A stretch of DNA of 64,000 nt. Source: an uncultured Elusimicrobia bacterium (GTDB lineage: Bacteria > Elusimicrobiota > Elusimicrobia > 2-01-FULL-59-12). Below are positions 36,590 to 61,755 of this stretch, one piece after another. The position numbers and the translations under genes were made by a program. Every line of letters begins with the position of its first letter. Position 1 is the stretch's first letter. The DNA lies in NCBI GenBank assembly GCA_963702895.1, contig OY969767.1:2418398-2482397 (forward strand). The letters are read 5' to 3'. Below the pieces are notes generated by a model. That model searched no databases, had not been told where the DNA came from, and saw only the letters and a list, made by a program, of their open reading frames with translations.

Positions 36590-37075
36590 CTCCCGGACCT
36601 GGGCGCCGCACGACCGGCGCTCGCCCGACTATAGTGTGTCGGGTGAACCTAGACGAAGTGCAAAACTCCCGGACTAGGATTCGAGCGCCACACTTCGGGC
36701 GCTCGCCCGACTGTTGTGTGTCGGGTGAACCTAGACGAAGTGCAAAACTCCCGGACTAGGATTCGAGCGCCACACTTCGGGCGCTCGCCCGACTGTTGTG
36801 TGTCGGGTGAACCTAGACGAAGTGCAAAACTCCCGGACTAGGATTCGAGCGCCACACTTCGGGCGCTCGCCCGACTGTTGTGTGTCGGGCGAACCTAGAC
36901 GAAGTGCAAAACTCCCGGACTAGGATTCGAGCGCCACACTTCGGGCGCTCGCCCGACTGTTGTGTGTCGGGCGAACCTAGACGAAGTGCAAAACTCCCGG
37001 ACTAGGATTCGAGCGCCACACTTCGGGCGCTCGCCCGACTGTTGTGTGTCGGGCGAACCTAGACGAAGTGCAAAA
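36590..37075 (-). repeat. Tandem array of six head-to-tail ~82-bp units (five 82-bp plus one degenerate 76-bp distal copy), each a tRNA-Gln 3'-end copy with a two-hairpin insert
   Basis: The motif CAAAACTCCCGGACTAGG recurs at a strict 82-bp period (36661, 36743, 36825, 36907, 36989, 37071). Units contain two perfect 7-bp hairpins, GCCCGAC-N8-GTCGGGC and GAGCGCC-N8-GGCGCTC. No unique spacers. Confidence 0.85.
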
Positions 37076-37146
37076 CTCCCGGACTAGGATTCGAACCTAG
37101 ACTAAGGGATTCAGAGTCCCTCGTGCTACCGTTACACAATCCGGGA
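37076..37146 (-). tRNA. tRNA-Gln (anticodon CUG), 71 nt, CCA not encoded
   Basis: Manual cloverleaf: acceptor TCCCGGA/TCCGGGA with U1-A72 and G73 discriminator (both typical of bacterial tRNA-Gln); D-arm GTGT-AACGGTA-GCAC; anticodon arm AGGGA-CTCTGAA-TCCCT (CUG at about 37112-37114 on the minus strand); T-arm CTAGG-TTCGAAT-CCTAG. Confidence 0.8.
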
Positions 37147-37330
37147 GTTTTGCACTCCATATGCCAGAGTCCCTCGTGCTACCTAACCTTTATCCTTCGA
37201 CTCCGCACGCCCTGAGCGCAATCGAAGGACTCGTTCCGCTTAGGATGGTTCGGCTCGTATCACTGATGGTGAGCGAGGTCGCCAAACATCTGGCGACCGA
37301 GTCGAACCAGACCCTCCGAAAGCATGACTC

Positions 37331-44384: not shown

Positions 44385-45206
44385 ATGAGACGGCGAGCTT
44401 GGCTTTCCTTGCTTCTTTTGGGGTTCTGTGTGTTCAATTTGGCTCCGGGGTCAGAGGCCCGCGTGAAGATTTCGAAGCTTGCTGAGAAATTGGTTTACGG
44501 CGACCAGCCCACGAGGCTCGCCGGGATTGAAGAGTTCAACAAGCTGCCCGCGGAAGCCCAGCAAAAACTGGTACCTGATTTTATGGTCGCCATGAGCGAT
44601 GAAGATCCAGAGGCCCGCAAAATCGCCTCTCGCATCTTGAAAGCGATGGGTGTCCAAGCGGAAGCCCAGGTCCCAGACGCGAAAAAGGAGATCGCCTCAG
44701 AGAAGTCCAAGACCAAGCCCATCGACAAGTGGGAAGAAGAGAAACGCTTAAAACAGGAGGCGAGTCAGGATAAGTGGGCTGATTTAAGAAGCATGCGCTC
44801 GGAAGAGCAGGGGGGCTACGCCTCCATGAAGCAACAACTCGAAAGCGAAAAGAAGGGCCAGGTGTGGATCGATCCCTCCCAGCTCACCACCGAGGCCTTG
44901 GACAAGACCTCGCCTCTCGGTTCTGTGACCGAGGCTTTGCGTGACTCGGATCCGTGGGTGAGAGCACAGGCCGCGCGGCGCCTCGGCACGATCCGGCCCG
45001 CGCCCGTGGAAGCCATCCCCGACCTCATCGCGATGCTGGGTGAGAACATCCCGGAGTCGCGCCGCGCGGCGGCCGCTGCGCTCGGTTCCTTTGGGCCCCT
45101 GGCGGAAAAAGCGCTTCCTGCCCTCACAACGGCCCTCTCCGACCCTGACCCCGCCACGCGGCAGATCGCGCAAGAGGCGATTAAGCAGATTCAAATGCAC
45201 CCGTGA
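44385..45206 (+). CDS. Secreted HEAT-repeat protein
   Basis: Signal peptide; C-terminal HEAT-like repeats (DSDPWVRAQAARRLGTI; ESRRAAAAALGSFG; DPATRQIAQEAIKQI). Confidence 0.6.
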   Translation: MRRRAWLSLLLLGFCVFNLAPGSEARVKISKLAEKLVYGDQPTRLAGIEEFNKLPAEAQQKLVPDFMVAMSDEDPEARKIASRILKAMGVQAEAQVPDAKKEIASEKSKTKPIDKWEEEKRLKQEASQDKWADLRSMRSEEQGGYASMKQQLESEKKGQVWIDPSQLTTEALDKTSPLGSVTEALRDSDPWVRAQAARRLGTIRPAPVEAIPDLIAMLGENIPESRRAAAAALGSFGPLAEKALPALTTALSDPDPATRQIAQEAIKQIQMHP

Positions 45207-48200
45207 CCCGAGACGATTTCAACAAACTCCTTCGCGAACAGGTTCTCGTCTTCGACGGGGCTACAGGCACCAACCTTCAGCTCCACAATCCCACCCTGGA
45301 CGACTATGCCGGCATGGAAGGCTGCACCGAAATTCTTCTTGAAACACATCCGGAATGGATCGAGGAGCTTCACGCCTCCTTCTTTAAAGCGGGATGCCAG
45401 GTCGTGGAGACCAATTCTTTTGGGGCGAATCGTATCGTTTTCACCGAATACGGTCTTGAGGACCGGGTTCATGAGTTTAATGTCAAAGCGGCCCAGCTTG
45501 CTCGGAAAGTCGCCCATGCCTTCAGCGCCCAAGACAAACCCCGTTTTGTCGCGGGCTCCATGGGTCCTGGCACGAAGCTTCCTTCTCTTGGACACACCAC
45601 TTTCGACACACTGCGCCATAACTACCAGGAACAAGCTGAAGGTCTGATCGACGGGGGCGTGGACATCCTCCTGATCGAAACCTGCCAGGATATCCTACAG
45701 GCCAAAGCCGCCACGGTGGGCGTTCTGGACGCTCTTTCCCGCAAGAAGAAGGACCTCCCGATCATGGTGCAGGTCACCGTGGAGTCCACGGGGACTTTGC
45801 TCTTGGGGACCGAAATGGCGGCGGTCATCTCCGCTTTGGAGCCCTATCCCATCGCTTCCCTCGGCATGAACTGTGCGACGGGCCCCCAGGAGATGTCGGA
45901 ACACGTGCGGATCCTGTCCCAGCAGTGGGCCCGGCCTATTTCTGTTCTTCCCAACGCGGGTTTACCCGAAAACGTGGGCGGACGAGCAGTCTATCGGCTC
46001 ACTCCTCAGGAGCTGGCCGAGCATCTGAAAGATTTCGTCACCCGGTTCGGGATCAATATCGTAGGCGGCTGCTGTGGGACCACGCCCGCGCATCTGGCTG
46101 AAGTCGTGAAAGTCATGGAGAAGATCAAGCCTGTTCCGAGAAGCCTCTCAAGCACCCCGGCTTGTTCAAGCCTCTACCTTCAAGTGCCCTTCAAGCAGGA
46201 GCCGAGGCCTCTTATCATCGGTGAACGCACGAATGCCAACGGCTCCAAGAAATTTCGTGAGCTGCTCGCCAAGGATGACTTTGATGCGATCGCCGCCATG
46301 GGAAAAGAAGAGGTGAACGAGGGCGCTCACATGATCGACCTCTGCACAGCTTTTGTGGGCCGGGACGAGGTCCGTGACATGAAGGAATGTGTGAGCCGCA
46401 TGGCGCTCCAGGTGCGCCTGCCGCTCATGATTGACTCCACCGAGGCCCCCGTGATTGAAGAAGCTCTTAAACGTGCGGGCGGACGCTGTGTCATCAATTC
46501 CATCAACCTGGAAGATGGCGAAGAAAGAATGAAGGCGGTCTGCCCTCTGGCCAAGACTTATGGCGCAGCCCTGGTGGCGCTCACAATCGACGAGCAAGGC
46601 ATGGCCAAAACCCGGCAAAAGAAGCTCGCCATCGCCAAGCGCATTCACGATCTGGCCATCAAGCGCTTCGGTCTGCGACCGGAAGATTTGCTGTTCGACG
46701 CTTTGACGTTTACGCTCGGTTCGGGTGACGAGGATTTTCGCAAGGCAGGTCTCGAGACCATCGAGGCCATCCGCCTGATCAAAAAGGAGCTCCCCGGAGT
46801 CTTCACCGTACTGGGCGTTTCCAATATCTCGTTTGGTCTGGCACCCCAGATCCGCCAGGTGTTGAACTCGGTGTTTCTCCATTACGCCATTGAAGCCGGT
46901 CTCGACGCTGCCATTGTCCACGCACGCAAGATCCTGCCCCTCTACAAAATCGATGAGAAAGGACGGGAGCTCGCTCGTAAATTGATTTTTGATGATCGCA
47001 CACCCCTCTCGTCATCCCCCGCGGGTGTCAGCGGGGGATCCATCATGATGGACCCCGGGTCTCCAAACAACAGGCGACCCGGCCCGCCGGACGTGTGGAG
47101 GGCCGGCTTACAATCCGCCGGGGTGACGGCTTCTTTTGATCCTCTGACCGCGCTCATGGCGCACTATGCCGAAACCTCAGAGATCTCTGCGAAAGCGAAT
47201 AAGGAAGAACCCAAGACCATCGAAGAGCATCTCAAGGTCCGTATCATCGACGGGAATAAACAGGGCCTGGAGGGACTGCTCGATGAGGCGATGAAGAAGT
47301 GGGGTCCGCTCGAGATCATCAACACCATACTGCTTGACGGGATGCGGGTGGTGGGCGATTTGTTTGGTTCGGGCCAGATGCAGCTCCCCTTCGTTCTTCA
47401 GTCCGCGGAAACCATGAAAGTGGCGGTGCGTCATCTGGAGCCCTTCATGCCTAAGGCGGACGCTGGTGTTCATAAAGGGAAGCTCGTCCTTGCGACCGTC
47501 AAAGGGGACGTTCACGACATCGGGAAGAACCTCGTCGATATCATCCTCACGAACAACGGCTACAAGGTTTTCAATTTGGGCATCAAGATGTCGATCGATG
47601 AGATCCTCAAGGCTGCCGCGGAAAAGAAGGCCGATGCGATCGGGATGTCAGGCTTGCTCGTCAAATCGACGGCGGTCATGAAGGAAAACTTAGAGGAGAT
47701 GAATAAACGAGGCGTGCAAACGCCGGTCCTTTTGGGTGGGGCGGCTCTCACGCGCCGATTTGTGGAAGAAGATCTCCGGCAGCTCTACAAGGGCTATGTC
47801 TATTATGGGGTGGACGCTTTTGCGGGGCTTCGCATCATGGACGAGCTGACCAACCCTTCCAGAGAAAAGAAGTTGACCCTCTATGAGACGCGTGGCGGTT
47901 CGGGCCAAACCTTGAAAGCGGGAGACTTGCCCTCACCCCACCCCTCTCCCGCCTTCGGCGGGAGAGGGCGGTCGCCAGACGCCTGGCGACCGGGTGAGGG
48001 CACGCTCTATATCCCTCTATCCCCCTCTCCTTCTATTCCTCATCCGCCGTTCTGGGGCAGCCGGGTCGCGCGAGGAATCGCTTTAAAGGATGTCTTCCCC
48101 TATATCAACGAAACGGCCCTCCTCAAAGTGCGCTGGGGCTTTTCCAGGGGGCAAACAAGCGCCGAAGATTACGCGCAACTCCTTAAGGAAACCGTTGGGC

Positions 48201-48904
48201 CGCTCTTTCAGAAGTGGAAAAACTACTGCCTTAAGGAGCAGATACTGGTCCCGCAAGTGGTTTACGGTTATTTCCCTTGCCTGTCTGAAGGAGATGATGT
48301 GGTGGTGTATAGGCCGGAAGATTTGAAAAAGGAATGGGTGCGCTTTAAATTCCCGCGACAAAACACGACTCCGATGCGATGTATCAGTGACTTCTTTCTC
48401 CAAAAGCCGTCATCCCGGCATGCTGTAAGCCGGGATCCATCAGACGTGATGGATCCCCCGCTAAAGTCCGCGGGGGATGACAGAAAGAATTTTGACGTAT
48501 TAGGTTGCTTTGTCGTGACGGTCGGAACCCAGGCAAGCAACAAAGCGCATGCCCTCTTCAAGGAGAACTCCTACAGCGATTATCTCTACCTGCACGGGCT
48601 AAGCGTGGAAACGGCCGAAGCCTTAGCCGAGCACTGGCACCGCCGCATGCGTGAGGAGCTGAACATCCACCAGGAAGATCACCCGGAGGTGCGTGAATGG
48701 TTTCACCAGAAGTACCATGGCGGTCGCTACTCTTTTGGGTATCCCGCCTGCCCCAACCTGGAAGATCAAGCAAAGCTTTTTGAACTGCTGGATCCCCAAC
48801 GCATTGGCGTAGCGCTCTCCGAAGCGTTTCAGTTAGACCCTGAGCAAAGCACCTCCGCCATCGTCCTGCACCACCCCGAAGCCAAATACTTTAACGTCCA
48901 GTAA
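45203..48904 (+). CDS. metH: Cobalamin-dependent methionine synthase (Hcy-binding, pterin-binding, B12-binding and AdoMet-activation domains) carrying three in-frame palindromic insertions
   Basis: Single 1233-aa ORF with Hcy-domain start (VLVFDGATGTNLQ), GCCGTTPAHL, B12-binding region and C-terminal activation domain. Start overlaps the upstream stop. Confidence 0.9.
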   Translation: MTRDDFNKLLREQVLVFDGATGTNLQLHNPTLDDYAGMEGCTEILLETHPEWIEELHASFFKAGCQVVETNSFGANRIVFTEYGLEDRVHEFNVKAAQLARKVAHAFSAQDKPRFVAGSMGPGTKLPSLGHTTFDTLRHNYQEQAEGLIDGGVDILLIETCQDILQAKAATVGVLDALSRKKKDLPIMVQVTVESTGTLLLGTEMAAVISALEPYPIASLGMNCATGPQEMSEHVRILSQQWARPISVLPNAGLPENVGGRAVYRLTPQELAEHLKDFVTRFGINIVGGCCGTTPAHLAEVVKVMEKIKPVPRSLSSTPACSSLYLQVPFKQEPRPLIIGERTNANGSKKFRELLAKDDFDAIAAMGKEEVNEGAHMIDLCTAFVGRDEVRDMKECVSRMALQVRLPLMIDSTEAPVIEEALKRAGGRCVINSINLEDGEERMKAVCPLAKTYGAALVALTIDEQGMAKTRQKKLAIAKRIHDLAIKRFGLRPEDLLFDALTFTLGSGDEDFRKAGLETIEAIRLIKKELPGVFTVLGVSNISFGLAPQIRQVLNSVFLHYAIEAGLDAAIVHARKILPLYKIDEKGRELARKLIFDDRTPLSSSPAGVSGGSIMMDPGSPNNRRPGPPDVWRAGLQSAGVTASFDPLTALMAHYAETSEISAKANKEEPKTIEEHLKVRIIDGNKQGLEGLLDEAMKKWGPLEIINTILLDGMRVVGDLFGSGQMQLPFVLQSAETMKVAVRHLEPFMPKADAGVHKGKLVLATVKGDVHDIGKNLVDIILTNNGYKVFNLGIKMSIDEILKAAAEKKADAIGMSGLLVKSTAVMKENLEEMNKRGVQTPVLLGGAALTRRFVEEDLRQLYKGYVYYGVDAFAGLRIMDELTNPSREKKLTLYETRGGSGQTLKAGDLPSPHPSPAFGGRGRSPDAWRPGEGTLYIPLSPSPSIPHPPFWGSRVARGIALKDVFPYINETALLKVRWGFSRGQTSAEDYAQLLKETVGPLFQKWKNYCLKEQILVPQVVYGYFPCLSEGDDVVVYRPEDLKKEWVRFKFPRQNTTPMRCISDFFLQKPSSRHAVSRDPSDVMDPPLKSAGDDRKNFDVLGCFVVTVGTQASNKAHALFKENSYSDYLYLHGLSVETAEALAEHWHRRMREELNIHQEDHPEVREWFHQKYHGGRYSFGYPACPNLEDQAKLFELLDPQRIGVALSEAFQLDPEQSTSAIVLHHPEAKYFNVQ
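47011..47127. repeat. Palindromic element pair lying in frame inside metH
   Basis: GTCATCCCCCGCGGG-TGTCA-GCGGGGGATCCATCATGATGGACCCCGGG ... GGCTTACAATCCGCCGGGGTGACGG. Encodes SSSPAGVSGGSIMMDPGSPNNRRPGPPDVWRAGLQSAGVTA. Confidence 0.6.
47930..48000. repeat. Nested palindrome (CCCTCACC ... GGGTGAGGG family) lying in frame inside metH
   Basis: CCCTCACCCCACCCCTCTCCCGCC-TTCG-GGCGGGAGAGGGCGGTCGCCAG-ACGC-CTGGCGACCGGGTGAGGG: an outer stem enclosing two hairpins, followed by a CT-rich tract. Encodes PSPHPSPAFGGRGRSPDAWRPGEG. Confidence 0.6.
48409..48482. repeat. Two opposed palindromic units lying in frame inside metH
   Basis: GTCATCCCGGC-ATGCTGTAA-GCCGGGATCCATCAGACGTGATGGATCCCCCGC-TAAAGTCC-GCGGGGGATGACAG. 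Confidence 0.6.
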
Positions 48905-57901: not shown

Positions 57902-58606
57902 ATGATTTCGGCATTATTATTTGATTTTGGGGGCACCCTGGACTCCGATGGCGAGCATTGGCTTAACCGGTTCTATGCCATTTATCCCGATATAGGCTTA
58001 CCCGAAGTGCCTAAACCAAAGATTAAAGAGGCCTTTTACTGGGCTGATGAGCAGGCGAGTATCGACCCTGCCATGCGTCAGGCCGGTCTCAGACAAATGA
58101 CCGAGCTTCACGTCCGCTGGCAATTTCATAAACTGGGGCTCCATGACCGTCAGCTTGAAGTCGAAGCCGCGGCGGCCTTCTACAAACCGGCCAACCGAAT
58201 TCTTCGTCGTAATCGACACGTTCTAGAGAAATTAAAACACGCTGGTTTGAAACTCGGGATCCTCTCGAATTTTTATGGCAACATCGACACACTCTGCAGG
58301 GAATATTCCTTCTCCCCCCATTTGGACATCATCTTGGACTCGGCCGTGATCGGAATAAAAAAGCCTGACCCGAGGCTCTTTGCGCTTGCCTGCGAGCGGC
58401 TGAAGCTACCGGCCCATGAAATCGCTTTTGTCGGCGACTCCTTTGAGCGTGATATCGTCCCAGCGAAAATCCTTGGAATGAAGACGTTTTGGCTTGTTGG
58501 AGATCGCAAGCTCACACCCCCTGAGCCCGCCAAAGTGGACTGCATCCTTCGAAGCCTGGCGGACCTCCCCCATGATCTTGTCCCTCACCACAAAGATCCC
58601 AAATGA
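57902..58606 (+). CDS. HAD-superfamily hydrolase (phosphatase-like)
   Basis: N-terminal LLFDFGGTLD (DxD/G-type motif I) and distal FVGDSFERDI motif. Confidence 0.7.
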   Translation: MISALLFDFGGTLDSDGEHWLNRFYAIYPDIGLPEVPKPKIKEAFYWADEQASIDPAMRQAGLRQMTELHVRWQFHKLGLHDRQLEVEAAAAFYKPANRILRRNRHVLEKLKHAGLKLGILSNFYGNIDTLCREYSFSPHLDIILDSAVIGIKKPDPRLFALACERLKLPAHEIAFVGDSFERDIVPAKILGMKTFWLVGDRKLTPPEPAKVDCILRSLADLPHDLVPHHKDPK

Positions 58607-59472
58607 AGGCAGGCATCATCGCGGCGGGATGGGGCCAGAGACTAGCTCAGAACATCCCCAAAGCCCTGACGCCCATAGGACGGAGAGCTCTGATCGATTA
58701 CGCCCTCGACGGCTTGCAAGCCGCGGGGGCGAGCGAAGTGACCTGTATTGTCAACGAAGCCGCAAGGTCGGTCCCCGACTATGTGGCAAAAGCCAGTCGA
58801 AGAATCAAAATGGACTGGGTGATTCAAACGACACCTTCGTCGATGCACAGTTTTTTAATCGTGCTGGAGCATCTCGCGAATCAGCCCTCACCCCCAACCC
58901 TCTCCCGCGTGCACGCGGGAGAGGGCGAGGTCCGCAGGGCCGCGGGTGAGGGGAGCGAAGCCTTTTTGATTACCACGGTGGACTCGGTTGGTCCGCTTTC
59001 GATCTACAAGGATTTTGTCGAATCTTGCCAGCACTTCCCGGACGCGGATCTCTGCCTGGGGCTGACCCCCCATACCGACGACGAAAAACCCCTACGCGTG
59101 GCGATGCGCGGCAAGGAAGGAACAGGCCTGCTCCCGGAGCGCGTGGCGCAAGATCCCCCGGCCTTTGAGATCACGGCGATGAGCAGCAACGGATTCGAAA
59201 GCGAGTTCGTGACCGCCGGCCTCTACTGGGCTCATCCGCGCATTCTCCAAGAGAAGGAGAAGGTTCTCTCCGGCGGGCTCTCAGCGCTGCGGCAGTACTT
59301 CGGCTACCTGTTAAAATATGGTTATCGTTTCTACGGTGTGCCCCTGCCGCCAGTTCTGGACGTGGACCGGCCTCAGGACATCGCAAAGGCTGCAGAATGG
59401 GAACGCTCCGGGCTCGTGGCGCAAGCCACGGGCAGCGCCCAAGCGCCTCCAGCCGAAAGACGAGAGGGATGA
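58603..59472 (+). CDS. Nucleotidyltransferase (sugar/polyol-phosphate nucleotidyltransferase-like) carrying an in-frame palindromic insertion
   Basis: N-terminal GIIAAGWGQRLAQNIPKALTPIG nucleotide-binding signature. Start overlaps the upstream stop. Confidence 0.6.
   Translation: MKAGIIAAGWGQRLAQNIPKALTPIGRRALIDYALDGLQAAGASEVTCIVNEAARSVPDYVAKASRRIKMDWVIQTTPSSMHSFLIVLEHLANQPSPPTLSRVHAGEGEVRRAAGEGSEAFLITTVDSVGPLSIYKDFVESCQHFPDADLCLGLTPHTDDEKPLRVAMRGKEGTGLLPERVAQDPPAFEITAMSSNGFESEFVTAGLYWAHPRILQEKEKVLSGGLSALRQYFGYLLKYGYRFYGVPLPPVLDVDRPQDIAKAAEWERSGLVAQATGSAQAPPAERREG
58885..58950. repeat. Nested palindrome (CCCTCACC ... GGGTGAGGG family) lying in frame inside the nucleotidyltransferase gene
   Basis: CCCTCACCCCCAACCCTCTCCCGCG-TGCA-CGCGGGAGAGGGCG ... 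GCGGGTGAGGGG. Same family as the metH insert at 47930-48000. Confidence 0.55.
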
Positions 59473-60320
59473 TGCGTTTCTTGGGTATTTATCGTGAGCC
59501 AGAGTTTTCTCCTGGCCGACACCTGTCCAATGACGCCAAAATCCTGCGCTTGGTCGCACAGGCCTTAGCGTGCCAGGACATCTCGGTGCGCCTGGCCACG
59601 CTGGAAGAGGCTCGAGGCGAGTGGCAGGACGCGGACCTCATTTTCTCCATGTGTCAGGGGCCACAAGCTCTCCACGAGCTCACGCGGTGGAAGAGGCAGG
59701 GCGCTTGGATCCTCAATGACCCCGAAGCCTCTCGCCGGACCTATCGCGACAGCCTCTGTTCAGCCCTGCGCGAAGAGGATCTGAGATTTCCGCACAGCGA
59801 ATTTATTTCCACGAGCGCCCACCTCCGGGACCTGGAAAGTTTTCAGCCCTGGTTCTTGAACGAAGGCGCCTGGCTTAAACGCGCGGATGTCCACGCGACC
59901 ACCCCGTCCGACGTGGTGAAACTCGAACGGTGGTCAGACTTGAACTCGGTACTCGGAAGATTTCGCGCGCGCGGCCTCGAGAAAGCGGTTTTGCAGCATC
60001 ATTGCCCGGGCGATGAAGTGAAGTTCTATGCCGTCAAAGGGGATCGCCTGTTTTGGCCTTACTACCCTAAAGAATCCGAAGGGCACCCTTTTGATGAAAA
60101 AGCGCTCAAAGCCCTCGCGGAGCATGCGGCCAAAACGTTGGATCTCGCCATTTATGGCGGAGACGCGATTATTTCCCCGGAAGGCAGGATCACTCTGATC
60201 GATTTAAACGACTGGCCATCTTTCGCCCCCTGCCGGGGTGCCGCGGCCAGCGCCATCGCCAAATTCTTAAAGGATGCCTATCGTGCCCGCCAAAACAAAA
60301 GAGAAACAGCCAAAGTCTAA
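59469..60320 (+). CDS. ATP-grasp-like protein
   Basis: Start set at the MMRFLGIY Met overlapping the upstream stop. ATP-grasp-like blocks (EVKFYAVKGDRLFW; GGDAIISPEGRITLIDLNDWPSF). Confidence 0.5.
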   Translation: MMRFLGIYREPEFSPGRHLSNDAKILRLVAQALACQDISVRLATLEEARGEWQDADLIFSMCQGPQALHELTRWKRQGAWILNDPEASRRTYRDSLCSALREEDLRFPHSEFISTSAHLRDLESFQPWFLNEGAWLKRADVHATTPSDVVKLERWSDLNSVLGRFRARGLEKAVLQHHCPGDEVKFYAVKGDRLFWPYYPKESEGHPFDEKALKALAEHAAKTLDLAIYGGDAIISPEGRITLIDLNDWPSFAPCRGAAASAIAKFLKDAYRARQNKRETAKV

Positions 60321-61755
60321 GTTCGTCCGACGTACGACGTCCGACGCCCGCACATCTCACCCGAAACGGCCTCTGCGGGTCGCCCCTGGCCCCGAAGGAC
60401 TTCAGGACGTCGGACCTCGGACGTCGGACGCCCTCACAGGCTGGCCCGGCCCAAAATCCGTCGCCCTCTTCGAAGAGGAGCAAGCTTTCCTCTCCCCAGG
60501 CAATCAGTCGATCGCGCTCCTCTCGAAATTAACGATCGAGCGTGGCAGCGGCTGTCGCCTCACGGATGCTGACGGCAACTCCTATCTCGACTTGAATGGA
60601 GGTGTTTCGAGCGCAAGCCTTGGCCACTGCCATCCAAAGTTCGTTCAGGCGATGACGGACCAGCTCTCCAAAGTGACCCTGGGCAGTTATACCAGCCGTT
60701 CCCGTCTGGCTTTGGTCAAGTTGCTCGCGAAGATTGCCCCCAAAGGCCTGCGGCGGACTCAGTTTTTTTCCAGCGGCGCCGAAGCCGTCGAGGCCGCTTT
60801 TCGGCTCGCGAAGTCGATCACGAAGAAAAACCAGATCTTTGGGTTCTGGGGTGGCTATCATGGCAAAACACAAGGGACCCTGCCGCTTTCTCTGGTTGAT
60901 TGGAAGTTCGAGCTCGGCCCCTTGATGGCCGGCTACCAACAGACGCCTTATGCGGACTGCTACCGTTGCCCCTTCCGTGCGCGCTATCCGGAATGTGGTC
61001 TGGCCTGCGCTGAATATTTCCGTGATCAGATCCGTGCGACCGCCAGAGGCGACGTCGCCGCCGTTATCGCCGAGCCTGTTCAGGGCACGGCGGGCAATAT
61101 CGTTCCTCCCGATGGATTCATTCGAGCGGTATGCGAAATCGCCAAAGAGGAAGGTGCTGTCTTTATCTCGGACGAAATGATTACGGGCTTTGGCCGCACC
61201 GGTCACATGTTCGGCGTGGACCACGACAACGTCTTGCCGGACGTGATGAGCGTGGGCAAAGGCATGGGCAACGGTTTCCCCGTATCGGGCGTCATCACCA
61301 CGGACGCGCATGCCCAGGCCAGGCCCTGGTCGCTCCCCAGCGCATCCTCTTCGAGCTACGGGGGCAATCCTTTCGCGAGCGAAGCGGTGCGCGTCACGAC
61401 GCAAACGATCCTCGAAGAGGACCTCGTGAACAACAGCGCCCGCGTGGGACGCGTGCTCTTGGATGGCATTCGAAAGCTCCAAGGCCACTATCCTTTTATC
61501 GGGGACGTGCGCGGGCGTGGGCTGCTGATCGGCATGGACCTGGTCAAAGACCGCAAGACAAAGGAGTTCCTGCCTGCGGTCCTTTGCGAGAAGTTCTTTT
61601 TTGAATGTTTAAAGCGCGGTCTCCTCATGATGAGTTACACGCCGCGCGTCCGCATTCATCCGCCCTTGGTCCTGAGCGAATCCGAAGCCCAGGAAGCTCT
61701 CGCCAAAATGGATGAAGCGTTGGCGACCCTTGTCTCCGACTTCGAGAAGCTATGA
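60274..61755 (+). CDS. Class III PLP-dependent aminotransferase (omega-aminotransferase family)
   Basis: GGYHGKTQGTL, DEMITGFGRTGHMFGVDH and the PLP-lysine block SVGKGMGNGFP. About 50 N-terminal codons span the inverted-repeat element; no canonical in-frame start lies downstream of it. Confidence 0.75.
   Translation: MPIVPAKTKEKQPKSKFVRRTTSDARTSHPKRPLRVAPGPEGLQDVGPRTSDALTGWPGPKSVALFEEEQAFLSPGNQSIALLSKLTIERGSGCRLTDADGNSYLDLNGGVSSASLGHCHPKFVQAMTDQLSKVTLGSYTSRSRLALVKLLAKIAPKGLRRTQFFSSGAEAVEAAFRLAKSITKKNQIFGFWGGYHGKTQGTLPLSLVDWKFELGPLMAGYQQTPYADCYRCPFRARYPECGLACAEYFRDQIRATARGDVAAVIAEPVQGTAGNIVPPDGFIRAVCEIAKEEGAVFISDEMITGFGRTGHMFGVDHDNVLPDVMSVGKGMGNGFPVSGVITTDAHAQARPWSLPSASSSSYGGNPFASEAVRVTTQTILEEDLVNNSARVGRVLLDGIRKLQGHYPFIGDVRGRGLLIGMDLVKDRKTKEFLPAVLCEKFFFECLKRGLLMMSYTPRVRIHPPLVLSESEAQEALAKMDEALATLVSDFEKL
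60324..60429. repeat. Inverted-repeat element (duplicated 9-mer arms) at the 5' end of the aminotransferase ORF
   Basis: CGTCCGACGTACGACGTCCGACG ... about 60 bp ... CGTCGGACCTCGGACGTCGGACG. Just downstream of the ATP-grasp stop and in frame within the N-terminal extension of the next ORF. Confidence 0.5.

Follow-up and report, generated by a model that had tools for sequence, protein, structure and literature searches.

In-frame BoxC-type palindromes in metH and an NTP-transferase gene of an uncultured Elusimicrobia bacterium: closed, probably selfish elements with DUF559 as a candidate mobilizing enzyme

Short palindromic repeats of bacteria include BoxC/PIT repeats, reportedly described by Bachellier et al. 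in the 1990s and by Hoyne and Maher in 2000, and the Rickettsia palindromic elements (RPEs), said to have been described by Ogata et al. in 2000. The subject here is a pair of palindromic segments, copy A and copy B, that lie within the open reading frames (ORFs) of a nucleoside triphosphate (NTP) transferase and the methionine synthase MetH, respectively, of an uncultured Elusimicrobia bacterium (assembly GCA_963702895.1, contig OY969767.1, positions 2,418,398 to 2,482,397; this whole 64,000-nt stretch is termed the window). The names BoxC (1990s) and PIT (2000) precede that of the TM (intrastrand triplex) motif, which is known from more than 260 bacterial genomes (Holder et al. 2015, PMC4666352). 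E. coli K-12 carries 23 TM copies that are 'always located intergenically' (Holder et al. 2015, PMC4666352). The motif forms a triplex in vitro that was undetected in vivo, is without promoter or terminator activity, and is reported to have local genomic instability around it and no tie to mobile elements (Holder et al. 2015, PMC4666352). It is also proposed to act as a G-quadruplex/hairpin switch in intergenic DNA (Kaplan et al. 2016, PMC5100583). RPEs are short palindromic repeats found in frame within many unrelated protein-coding genes (PMC2267715).

Copies A and B (Table 1) share one architecture, in which an outer stem CCCTCACCC/GGGTGAGGG encloses a 12-bp CCCTCTCCCGC hairpin (hairpin 1) and a second small hairpin (hairpin 2). 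On one strand, the copies have the three 9-nt blocks of BoxC/PIT/TM in the same order as in Table 1 of Holder et al. (PMC4666352): CCCTCTCCC, a loop of 3-6 nt, GGGAGAGGG, a short linker of 2-4 nt and GGGTGAGGG. The minus strand of copy A, in which a 4-nt linker separates the 5' arm from hairpin 1, reads CCCTCTCCC(GCG-TGCA-CGC)GGGAGAGGG-TTGG-GGGTGAGGG, and that of copy B reads ...GGGAGAGGG-GTG-GGGTGAGGG. Further likenesses to BoxC/PIT/TM are the frequency of inverted pairs, the very wide taxonomic spread and the local variation in presence and absence. Unlike the intergenic BoxC/TM copies of E. coli, the window copies sit in ORFs and, as these ORFs are intact, are apparently translated. They also differ in that a single unit is closed by an extra inverted arm and joined to an unrelated small hairpin 2 to give a three-way junction, and in the stem of hairpin 1, which is 12 bp vs 9 bp. 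The window copies are, thus, a closed BoxC/PIT/TM variant in an unusual, translated location. A preliminary description of the window had placed palindromes in both genes and joined them in one family, and the 9-mers and architecture common to both bear this out, with copy A ending 2 nt further on, at 58952. The pair is not a second family private to this genome, as the core is the pan-bacterial BoxC/PIT/TM repeat. A search of Rfam with the elements returned no family, with one chance match below threshold and one tRNA located elsewhere as the only hits.

The arm and hairpin 1 were searched for in a species-representative genome collection by the pattern CCCTCACCC-N1-16-CCCTCTCCC-N3-12-GGGAGAGGG, which occurs in at least 120 loci from more than 10 phyla. 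The matches listed include Pseudomonas, Xanthomonas, Bradyrhizobium, Anaerolineae, Dehalococcoidia, Planctomycetes, Verrucomicrobia, Nostoc and Acidobacteria. About one quarter of the 157 units in the 120 loci listed are closed by an inverted arm. The core is likewise dispersed and multi-copy, as BoxC is, with the pattern in many lineages and 12 units in 189 kb of window-related loci. The typical intergenic location of BoxC is found neither for the window copies nor for any copy of the related clade, all of which lie inside ORFs. In two Pseudomonas loci (L013:232-756 and L039:2784-3070), units are clustered at a spacing of ~110-190 nt, one of them in inverse orientation to the rest; these clusters share a downstream GGCCGACCGAGG extension and resemble a bacterial interspersed mosaic element (BIME)-like array of the same core motif.

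The two copies are beyond chance expectation. The 9-mer CCCTCACCC occurs four times in the window, always at an arm of copy A or B, compared to 0.74 occurrences expected, and a count of four was reached by 0 of 100 shuffles. With Watson-Crick pairing only, both copies are predicted to fold as RNA into three-way junctions, at -51.7 kcal/mol (z = -4.9) in copy A and at -67.4 kcal/mol (z = -8.7) in copy B. No further copy, intact or degenerate, is present in the 64 kb window. The 5' arms of both copies begin at codon position 1 (CCC-TCA-CCC, PSP), and the 3' arms of both are read as G-GGT-GAG-GG (GEG). The offset from arm to hairpin is 13 nt in copy A vs 12 nt in copy B; hence, the frame of hairpin 1 differs, with LSRVHAGEG encoded by copy A and PSPAFGGRG by copy B. 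The same relative frame proposed earlier for both genes, therefore, applies to the arms and not to the inner hairpin, and since hairpin 1 is translated in different frames in the NTP transferase and MetH, it is the DNA that is conserved and not the peptide.

Table 1. Coordinates of the two window elements, their host ORFs, the filled sites of the related clade and the DUF559 ORFs bracketed by units.
Feature	Position	Strand	Details
Copy A, closed BoxC-type palindrome in NTP-transferase ORF	58885..58952	+	encodes PSPPTLSRVHAGEGEVRRAAGEG
Copy A 5' arm CCCTCACCC	58885..58893	+	translated P-S-P
Copy A hairpin 1	58898..58925	+	12-bp stem CCCTCTCCCGCG/CGCGGGAGAGGG, loop TGCA
Copy A hairpin 2, degraded	58929..58941	+	GGTCC-GCA-GGGCC; from the predicted fold and by comparison to copy B and L001
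Copy A 3' arm GGGTGAGGG	58944..58952	+	translated G-E-G
Host ORF of copy A, MobA-like NTP transferase (PF12804)	58603..59472	+	289 aa; insert = residues ~93-120
Copy B, intact closed BoxC-type palindrome in metH linker between cobalamin (Cob) and activation domains	47930..48000	+	encodes PSPHPSPAFGGRGRSPDAWRPGEG
Copy B 5' arm	47930-47938	+	
Copy B hairpin 1	47942..47968	+	CCCTCTCCCGCC-TTC-GGCGGGAGAGGG
Copy B hairpin 2	47970..47991	+	GGTCGCCAG-ACGC-CTGGCGACC, perfect 9-bp stem
Copy B 3' arm	47992-48000	+	
Host ORF of copy B, cobalamin-dependent methionine synthase MetH	45203..48904	+	1233 aa; insert = residues ~909-933
Site: NTP-transferase loop			filled in window, L001, L002, L127, L154
Site: downstream aminotransferase	~codon 17-20		filled in L002, L129, L130
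Site: MocA-type oxidoreductase	~codon 171		filled in L002, L129, L131
Site: metH linker			filled in window
Unit-bracketed DUF559 ORFs	L005:1307-1794; L026:2111-2649; L064:5594-6026; L124 (E. coli K-12 1351204-1351760); L209; L215; L217; L220		

Both segments are insertions relative to orthologues, as the earlier description had supposed. The NTP-transferase loop is measurable in 84 of 120 homologues; its length is 10 aa in 67 of these, compared to 32 aa for the window protein. The orthologue alignment was used to build an AlphaFold model (mean predicted local distance difference test score (pLDDT) of 88.4, predicted template modelling score of 0.86), which positions the copy A insert between helix 80-92 and strand 121-125 and renders it as coil, with a block pLDDT of 52-59. 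The insert, thus, models as a disordered loop at the protein surface, where extra residues are likely tolerated. The copy B segment LPSPHPSPAFGGRGRSPDAWRPGEGTLY faces gaps in two full-length Thermus MetH structures that otherwise align throughout the window MetH, and it belongs to the linker that joins the cobalamin and activation domains. This linker is 69 aa long in the window and 49-52 aa long in the seven MetH proteins most closely related to it, and the segment is absent from the MetH of the syntenic relative L002. Orthologues that conserve the segment without palindromic DNA, raised earlier as a sign of native sequence, are not what was found; the NTP-loop inserts of several orthologues are palindromic DNA of the same family. 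Copy A together with the T-run that follows it was considered as a terminator and dropped; the T-run encodes a conserved F-(F/Y/L) that is kept in element-free orthologues. Two other lineage-specific inserts are apparent in metH at 47000-47134 (aa 600-644), which is missing in Thermus MetH, and at 48410-48490 (aa 1070-1096), which is missing in the L002 relative. These inserts are strongly palindromic (-71 and -41 kcal/mol, respectively) and have a GGGATCCATCA...TGATGGATCCC motif in common. They represent a palindrome family other than that of copy B, and metH therefore has three in-frame palindromic insertions.

The distribution of inserts at the NTP-transferase loop points to recurrent change. 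In the NTP-transferase tree, the 15 sequences with an insert are interspersed with empty sisters and all belong to one large clade, and Fitch parsimony requires at least 12 changes (gain or loss) from an empty root. A filled protein (P0003) and an empty one (P0005) share 80% identity, with a difference of exactly 54 nt at the loop. At the DNA level, the loop houses at least three element subfamilies: (i) one with the spacer ACGAGCGCAGCRCA (L289, with L290 approximately the same), (ii) one with a hairpin 2 of GGTCGC...GCGACC (L001), which is degraded in copy A and intact in copy B, and (iii) a third in L127; a 154-nt variant is found in L002. Linkers of the loop inserts range from 3 to 14 nt and their spacers differ, while the point of insertion varies by 0-3 codons. 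From these sequence comparisons, the loop is a probable insertion hotspot. L002 and L129 carry the ACGAGCGCAGCRCA-spacer subfamily in their MocA-type oxidoreductase gene as well, and the occurrence of the same discrete element in two genes is direct evidence of transposition. In the clade, hairpin 1 lies nearest the 5' end on the sense strand in all seven independent insertion events. The MocA site is filled by orthologous, intact copies in L002 and L129, by a copy without the 3' arm in L131 and by an internal remnant only in L128, and is empty in the window, L125 and L134; the intact, armless and remnant forms indicate that copies persist and decay. At the aminotransferase downstream of the NTP transferase, the window has a 137-nt CGTCCGACG-rich palindrome (60309-60445, -63 kcal/mol) in the N-terminal region of the ORF (60274-61755). 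Since L002, L129 and L130 have a BoxC-type element at the same point, this site takes different palindrome families.

Intragenic copies are not confined to the Elusimicrobia window. ORFs that run through units in the 120 loci listed were accepted when they had a coding-type codon-position GC pattern and Pfam-checked hosts. Genes interrupted in frame encode MetG (L005, L026), Mfd (L010), an ABC exporter (L014), LigA (L096), an AcrB-type pump (L091), NuoJ (L023), GlnE (L120), a GH31 glycosidase (L093), a U32 peptidase (L077) and an HODM-like protein (L015), such that in-frame copies are present in at least 10 Pfam-checked genes outside the window. Many other ORFs spanning units were rejected, some as antisense shadow frames (GC1 > GC3) and others, namely L082 (lpd), L095, L102, L066 and L015+1795, because their true start lies downstream of the element. 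Units occur in either orientation among unrelated genes of the 120 loci. In the 189 kb of window-related loci, every unit is intragenic and closed, and four sites are used. Orthologous loci were also sought by a metagenome scan, in which ~10 of 80 loci are true orthologues and the rest 25-40% paralogues. Arms-inward pairs of units without an ORF between them lie in frame inside genes of L010 (Mfd), L112, L015 and L093. In L112, a molybdopterin oxidoreductase subunit and a cytochrome c subunit are linked through such a pair into a single uninterrupted ORF, possibly an element-mediated gene fusion.

The census bears on the earlier suggestion that the frame shared by the two genes reflects frame-constrained survival of insertions. 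The window copies by themselves carry no statistical weight, because the TGA in GGG-TGA-GGG closes one of three frames and agreement is expected about half the time. The wider set is more informative. In either orientation, GGG-TGA-GGG closes one frame of the G-rich arm, and among 11 independent intragenic cases this arm is read as GEG in 10 (MetG, L014, L096, L093, L112, L015 and the four clade sites), as VR in one (Mfd) and never in the TGA frame. The excess of GEG is significant against a 1:1 split of the two open frames (binomial p = 0.006). The C-rich arm of single units is stop-free in all frames and is read uniformly (PSP 3, PHP 4 and LT 3). Frame filtering is, therefore, real, yet incomplete: the frame with the stop is excluded, and the G-rich arm favors GEG. 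The earlier suggestion is partly supported.

One protein domain is repeatedly associated with the units. In MetG of two Burkholderiales loci (L005 and L026), an in-frame DUF559 domain (PF04480, E = 3e-30) is enclosed by a pair of inverted units, and this cassette is placed between the anticodon-binding and tRNA-binding domains. By tblastn, DUF559 is detected in 7 of the 120 motif-selected loci listed, always within ~170 nt of a unit. A layout of [hairpin-arm] – ORF – [arm-hairpin] recurs, with the C-terminal unit 24-40 nt from the end of the DUF559 ORF. The association is reciprocal: among 30 loci with full-length DUF559 that were fetched without reference to the motif, 10 have a hairpin or unit within ~250 nt, often on both sides, vs 0 of 50 controls. 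In E. coli K-12, TM #9 is 168 nt from the DUF559 gene ycjD (L124, 1351204-1351760), and the C-terminal SPSP and stop codon of YcjD are encoded by a repeat block. By the coordinates in Table 1 of Holder et al. (PMC4666352), four of the five E. coli 'palindromic TM pairs' have arms inward and 16-27 nt between units, the layout expected of an ORF-less derivative of a DUF559 cassette. DUF559 is grouped with VSR, DUF2726 and a group I intron homing endonuclease (PMC3424549). A literature search found no link between DUF559 and BoxC. From gene neighborhoods, DUF559 is a candidate mobilizing enzyme and is not proven. The ycjD segment is present in 3,346 of 5,426 complete E. coli genomes, and the others (~38%) diverge ~45 nt before the BoxC unit (L124/L288, fabI-ycjD-sapF). 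In E. coli O157:H7, fabI is followed by genes for a TetR regulator and resistance-nodulation-division (RND) efflux that replace the ycjD region, and no clean excision is evident.

The window elements have features of several other systems. As with RPEs, the ORF is interrupted without a break in frame, orthologues without the element exist for both copies, and the host proteins are intact with the extra peptide at the surface. Unlike RPEs, which are AT-rich, ~100-150 bp and limited to Rickettsiales, the present core is GC-rich, ~33-71 nt and pan-bacterial, and the likeness is one of description only; from composition and length, homology to RPE-1 to RPE-8 is unlikely. Repetitive extragenic palindromic (REP) sequences and REPINs are similar in their ~35-nt hairpin units, inverted pairs or clusters, absence of target-site duplication and strand or orientation bias. 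They are by contrast species-specific and extragenic and use a Y1/HUH transposase, whereas it is a gene for the PD-(D/E)XK nuclease DUF559 that is flanked by units here. Miniature inverted-repeat transposable elements (MITEs; Correia/NEMIS, Nezha and ERIC-like) are likewise small, non-autonomous and bounded by terminal inverted repeats, here the 9-nt arms CCCTCACCC/GGGTGAGGG, and are occasionally intragenic in frame. Unlike MITEs of DDE transposons, the elements are without target-site duplication at the filled sites examined, with no direct repeat flanking the arms at the metH, NTP-transferase, aminotransferase and MocA sites, and no cognate insertion sequence (IS) with these termini was found. 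DUF559 belongs to the same nuclease clade as Vsr-like/EDxHD homing endonuclease genes, and a DUF559 ORF between inverted units resembles a homing cassette; homing endonuclease genes differ in their intron or intein context, which is lacking here, and the window elements are ORF-less.

The explanation that best accounts for these data, with a probability of roughly 0.75, is that each segment is a non-autonomous selfish palindromic element of the BoxC/PIT/TM family in a closed composite form (arm, hairpin 1, short hairpin 2 and inverted arm), inserted in DNA for a tolerated loop or linker, translated in frame and mobilized in trans, with DUF559 as the best candidate enzyme. Copy A inserted into DNA for a surface loop and copy B into DNA for an inter-domain linker, and both ORFs continue in frame across the insert. 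Survival of the insertion may depend on three properties: (i) a stop arises in only one of three frames across the element, from the TGA in the G-rich arm, (ii) the frame used would encode a structure-less peptide rich in Pro, Ser, Gly and Glu, and (iii) the element sits where extra residues appear to be tolerated. Once inserted, copies probably outlast speciation and decay by mutation and internal deletion. Because insertion is without target-site duplication and orientation-biased, it is proposed to proceed by a hairpin- or single-strand-dependent or a homing-like process that is catalyzed in trans, and the best candidate for the catalyst is the DUF559 (Vsr-like PD-(D/E)XK) endonuclease, the genes of which often lie between inverted units. 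Several observations weigh against this explanation. Neither a target-site duplication nor an exact boundary is definable from filled vs empty alleles, no near-identical filled and empty pair was found for the window's own copies, and these copies are only two in 64 kb. That the inserts are translated is deduced from the intact ORFs, and the three 9-mers are nearly invariant across phyla, which selection for a cellular function could explain instead of selfish spread. With respect to DUF559, tblastn detects none in the window or the 189 kb of related loci, two-thirds of DUF559 genes are without the repeat, and the arms point inward in DUF559 cassettes vs outward in the closed elements of the window, which could at most be ORF-less derivatives of such a cassette. 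A broader proposal, possible and with the odds somewhat against it, is that BoxC/PIT/TM repeats serve a selfish, pan-bacterial DUF559 cassette as its terminal inverted repeats or as its homing sites. ORF-less units, the two of the window included, would then be miniature derivatives, and insertion would be site- and orientation-selective, without target-site duplication, and would extend to essential genes in the form of translated loops.

Other explanations fit parts of these data. Palindromes between short repeats can be excised precisely by replication slippage, and an unlikely but serious reading of the NTP-loop pattern is a single ancient insertion followed by vertical inheritance and many precise losses, with no recurrent insertion. 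It fits with the single orientation of all DNA-checked loop inserts (hairpin 1 nearest the 5' end), their confinement to one large clade and the decay intermediates at the MocA site. Yet it demands at least 12 losses, each back to the exact 10-aa baseline loop, filled sequences adjoin empty sisters that are 80% identical, and the inserts are of different subfamilies, with linkers of 3 to 14 nt and unlike spacers, one of which is also present in another gene. An absence of target-site duplication, a hairpin structure and an orientation bias on one strand are hallmarks of REP/REPIN and IS200/IS605 biology. Mobilization may be by a single-strand transposase of the REP-associated tyrosine transposase (RAYT) type (HUH, IS200/IS605-like), with DUF559 a mere neighbor or a gene that has a repeat-like terminator hairpin. 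The elements have these traits, the bias including seven of seven events in the clade, all in plus-strand genes, and units cluster and alternate in Pseudomonas (L013 and L039). The transposase route is nonetheless judged improbable, since REP sequences are normally species-specific and not pan-bacterial, and inverted units were repeatedly found to flank just one protein, DUF559, whether loci were selected by motif or by DUF559, no search aimed at RAYT having been made.

Retention of the palindromes for a host function, whether as mRNA structure (ribosome pausing between domains or transcript stability) or as a triplex or G-quadruplex that promotes local recombination, is considered quite unlikely. 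The very stable predicted structures of copies A and B, the location of the metH copy exactly in an inter-domain linker and the near-invariance of the three 9-mers across phyla are all consistent with such a role, as are the in vitro triplex and instability around TM (Holder 2015, PMC4666352) and the proposed G4-hairpin switch (Kaplan 2016, PMC5100583). These points are offset by the patchy presence of elements among close relatives, decaying copies (hairpin 2 of copy A, L131 and L128), the lack of an Rfam family, the use of either unit orientation in unrelated genes, and earlier work in which neither promoter or terminator activity nor an in vivo triplex was detected (Holder et al. 2015, PMC4666352). 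An origin of both segments in place, as native low-complexity linkers with palindromy as a by-product of Pro/Gly-rich coding, is effectively refuted. Both segments do lie in regions that are variable among homologues, but the same 9-mers recur in the same order, with perfect 12-bp stems, in two unrelated genes and in the intergenic DNA of many phyla. The segments are, moreover, absent from close orthologues, and the frame of the inner hairpin differs between the genes, so that conservation is of the DNA and not the peptide.

The window also includes a tRNA gene (37076-37146, minus strand) that is embraced by a perfect 17-nt inverted repeat (AGTGCAAAACTCCCGGA/TCCGGGAGTTTTGCACT, 37067-37156), which reaches ~9-10 nt past the acceptor stem on both sides.

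BoxC/PIT/TM repeats are among the most widely conserved short repeats of bacteria and have been known for ~30 years, with their location described as intergenic. Intragenic BoxC copies are a general and under-described feature, and translated copies in core genes (MetH, MetG, Mfd, LigA and others) extend the RPE phenomenon to a pan-bacterial family. The PSP...GEG 'linkers' met by gene callers and homology tools are, in this light, really mobile DNA, and insertion polymorphism may underlie differences in loop length between orthologues. The reciprocal association with DUF559 provides a testable enzyme candidate for the family and, if true, would give a function to DUF559/YcjD.

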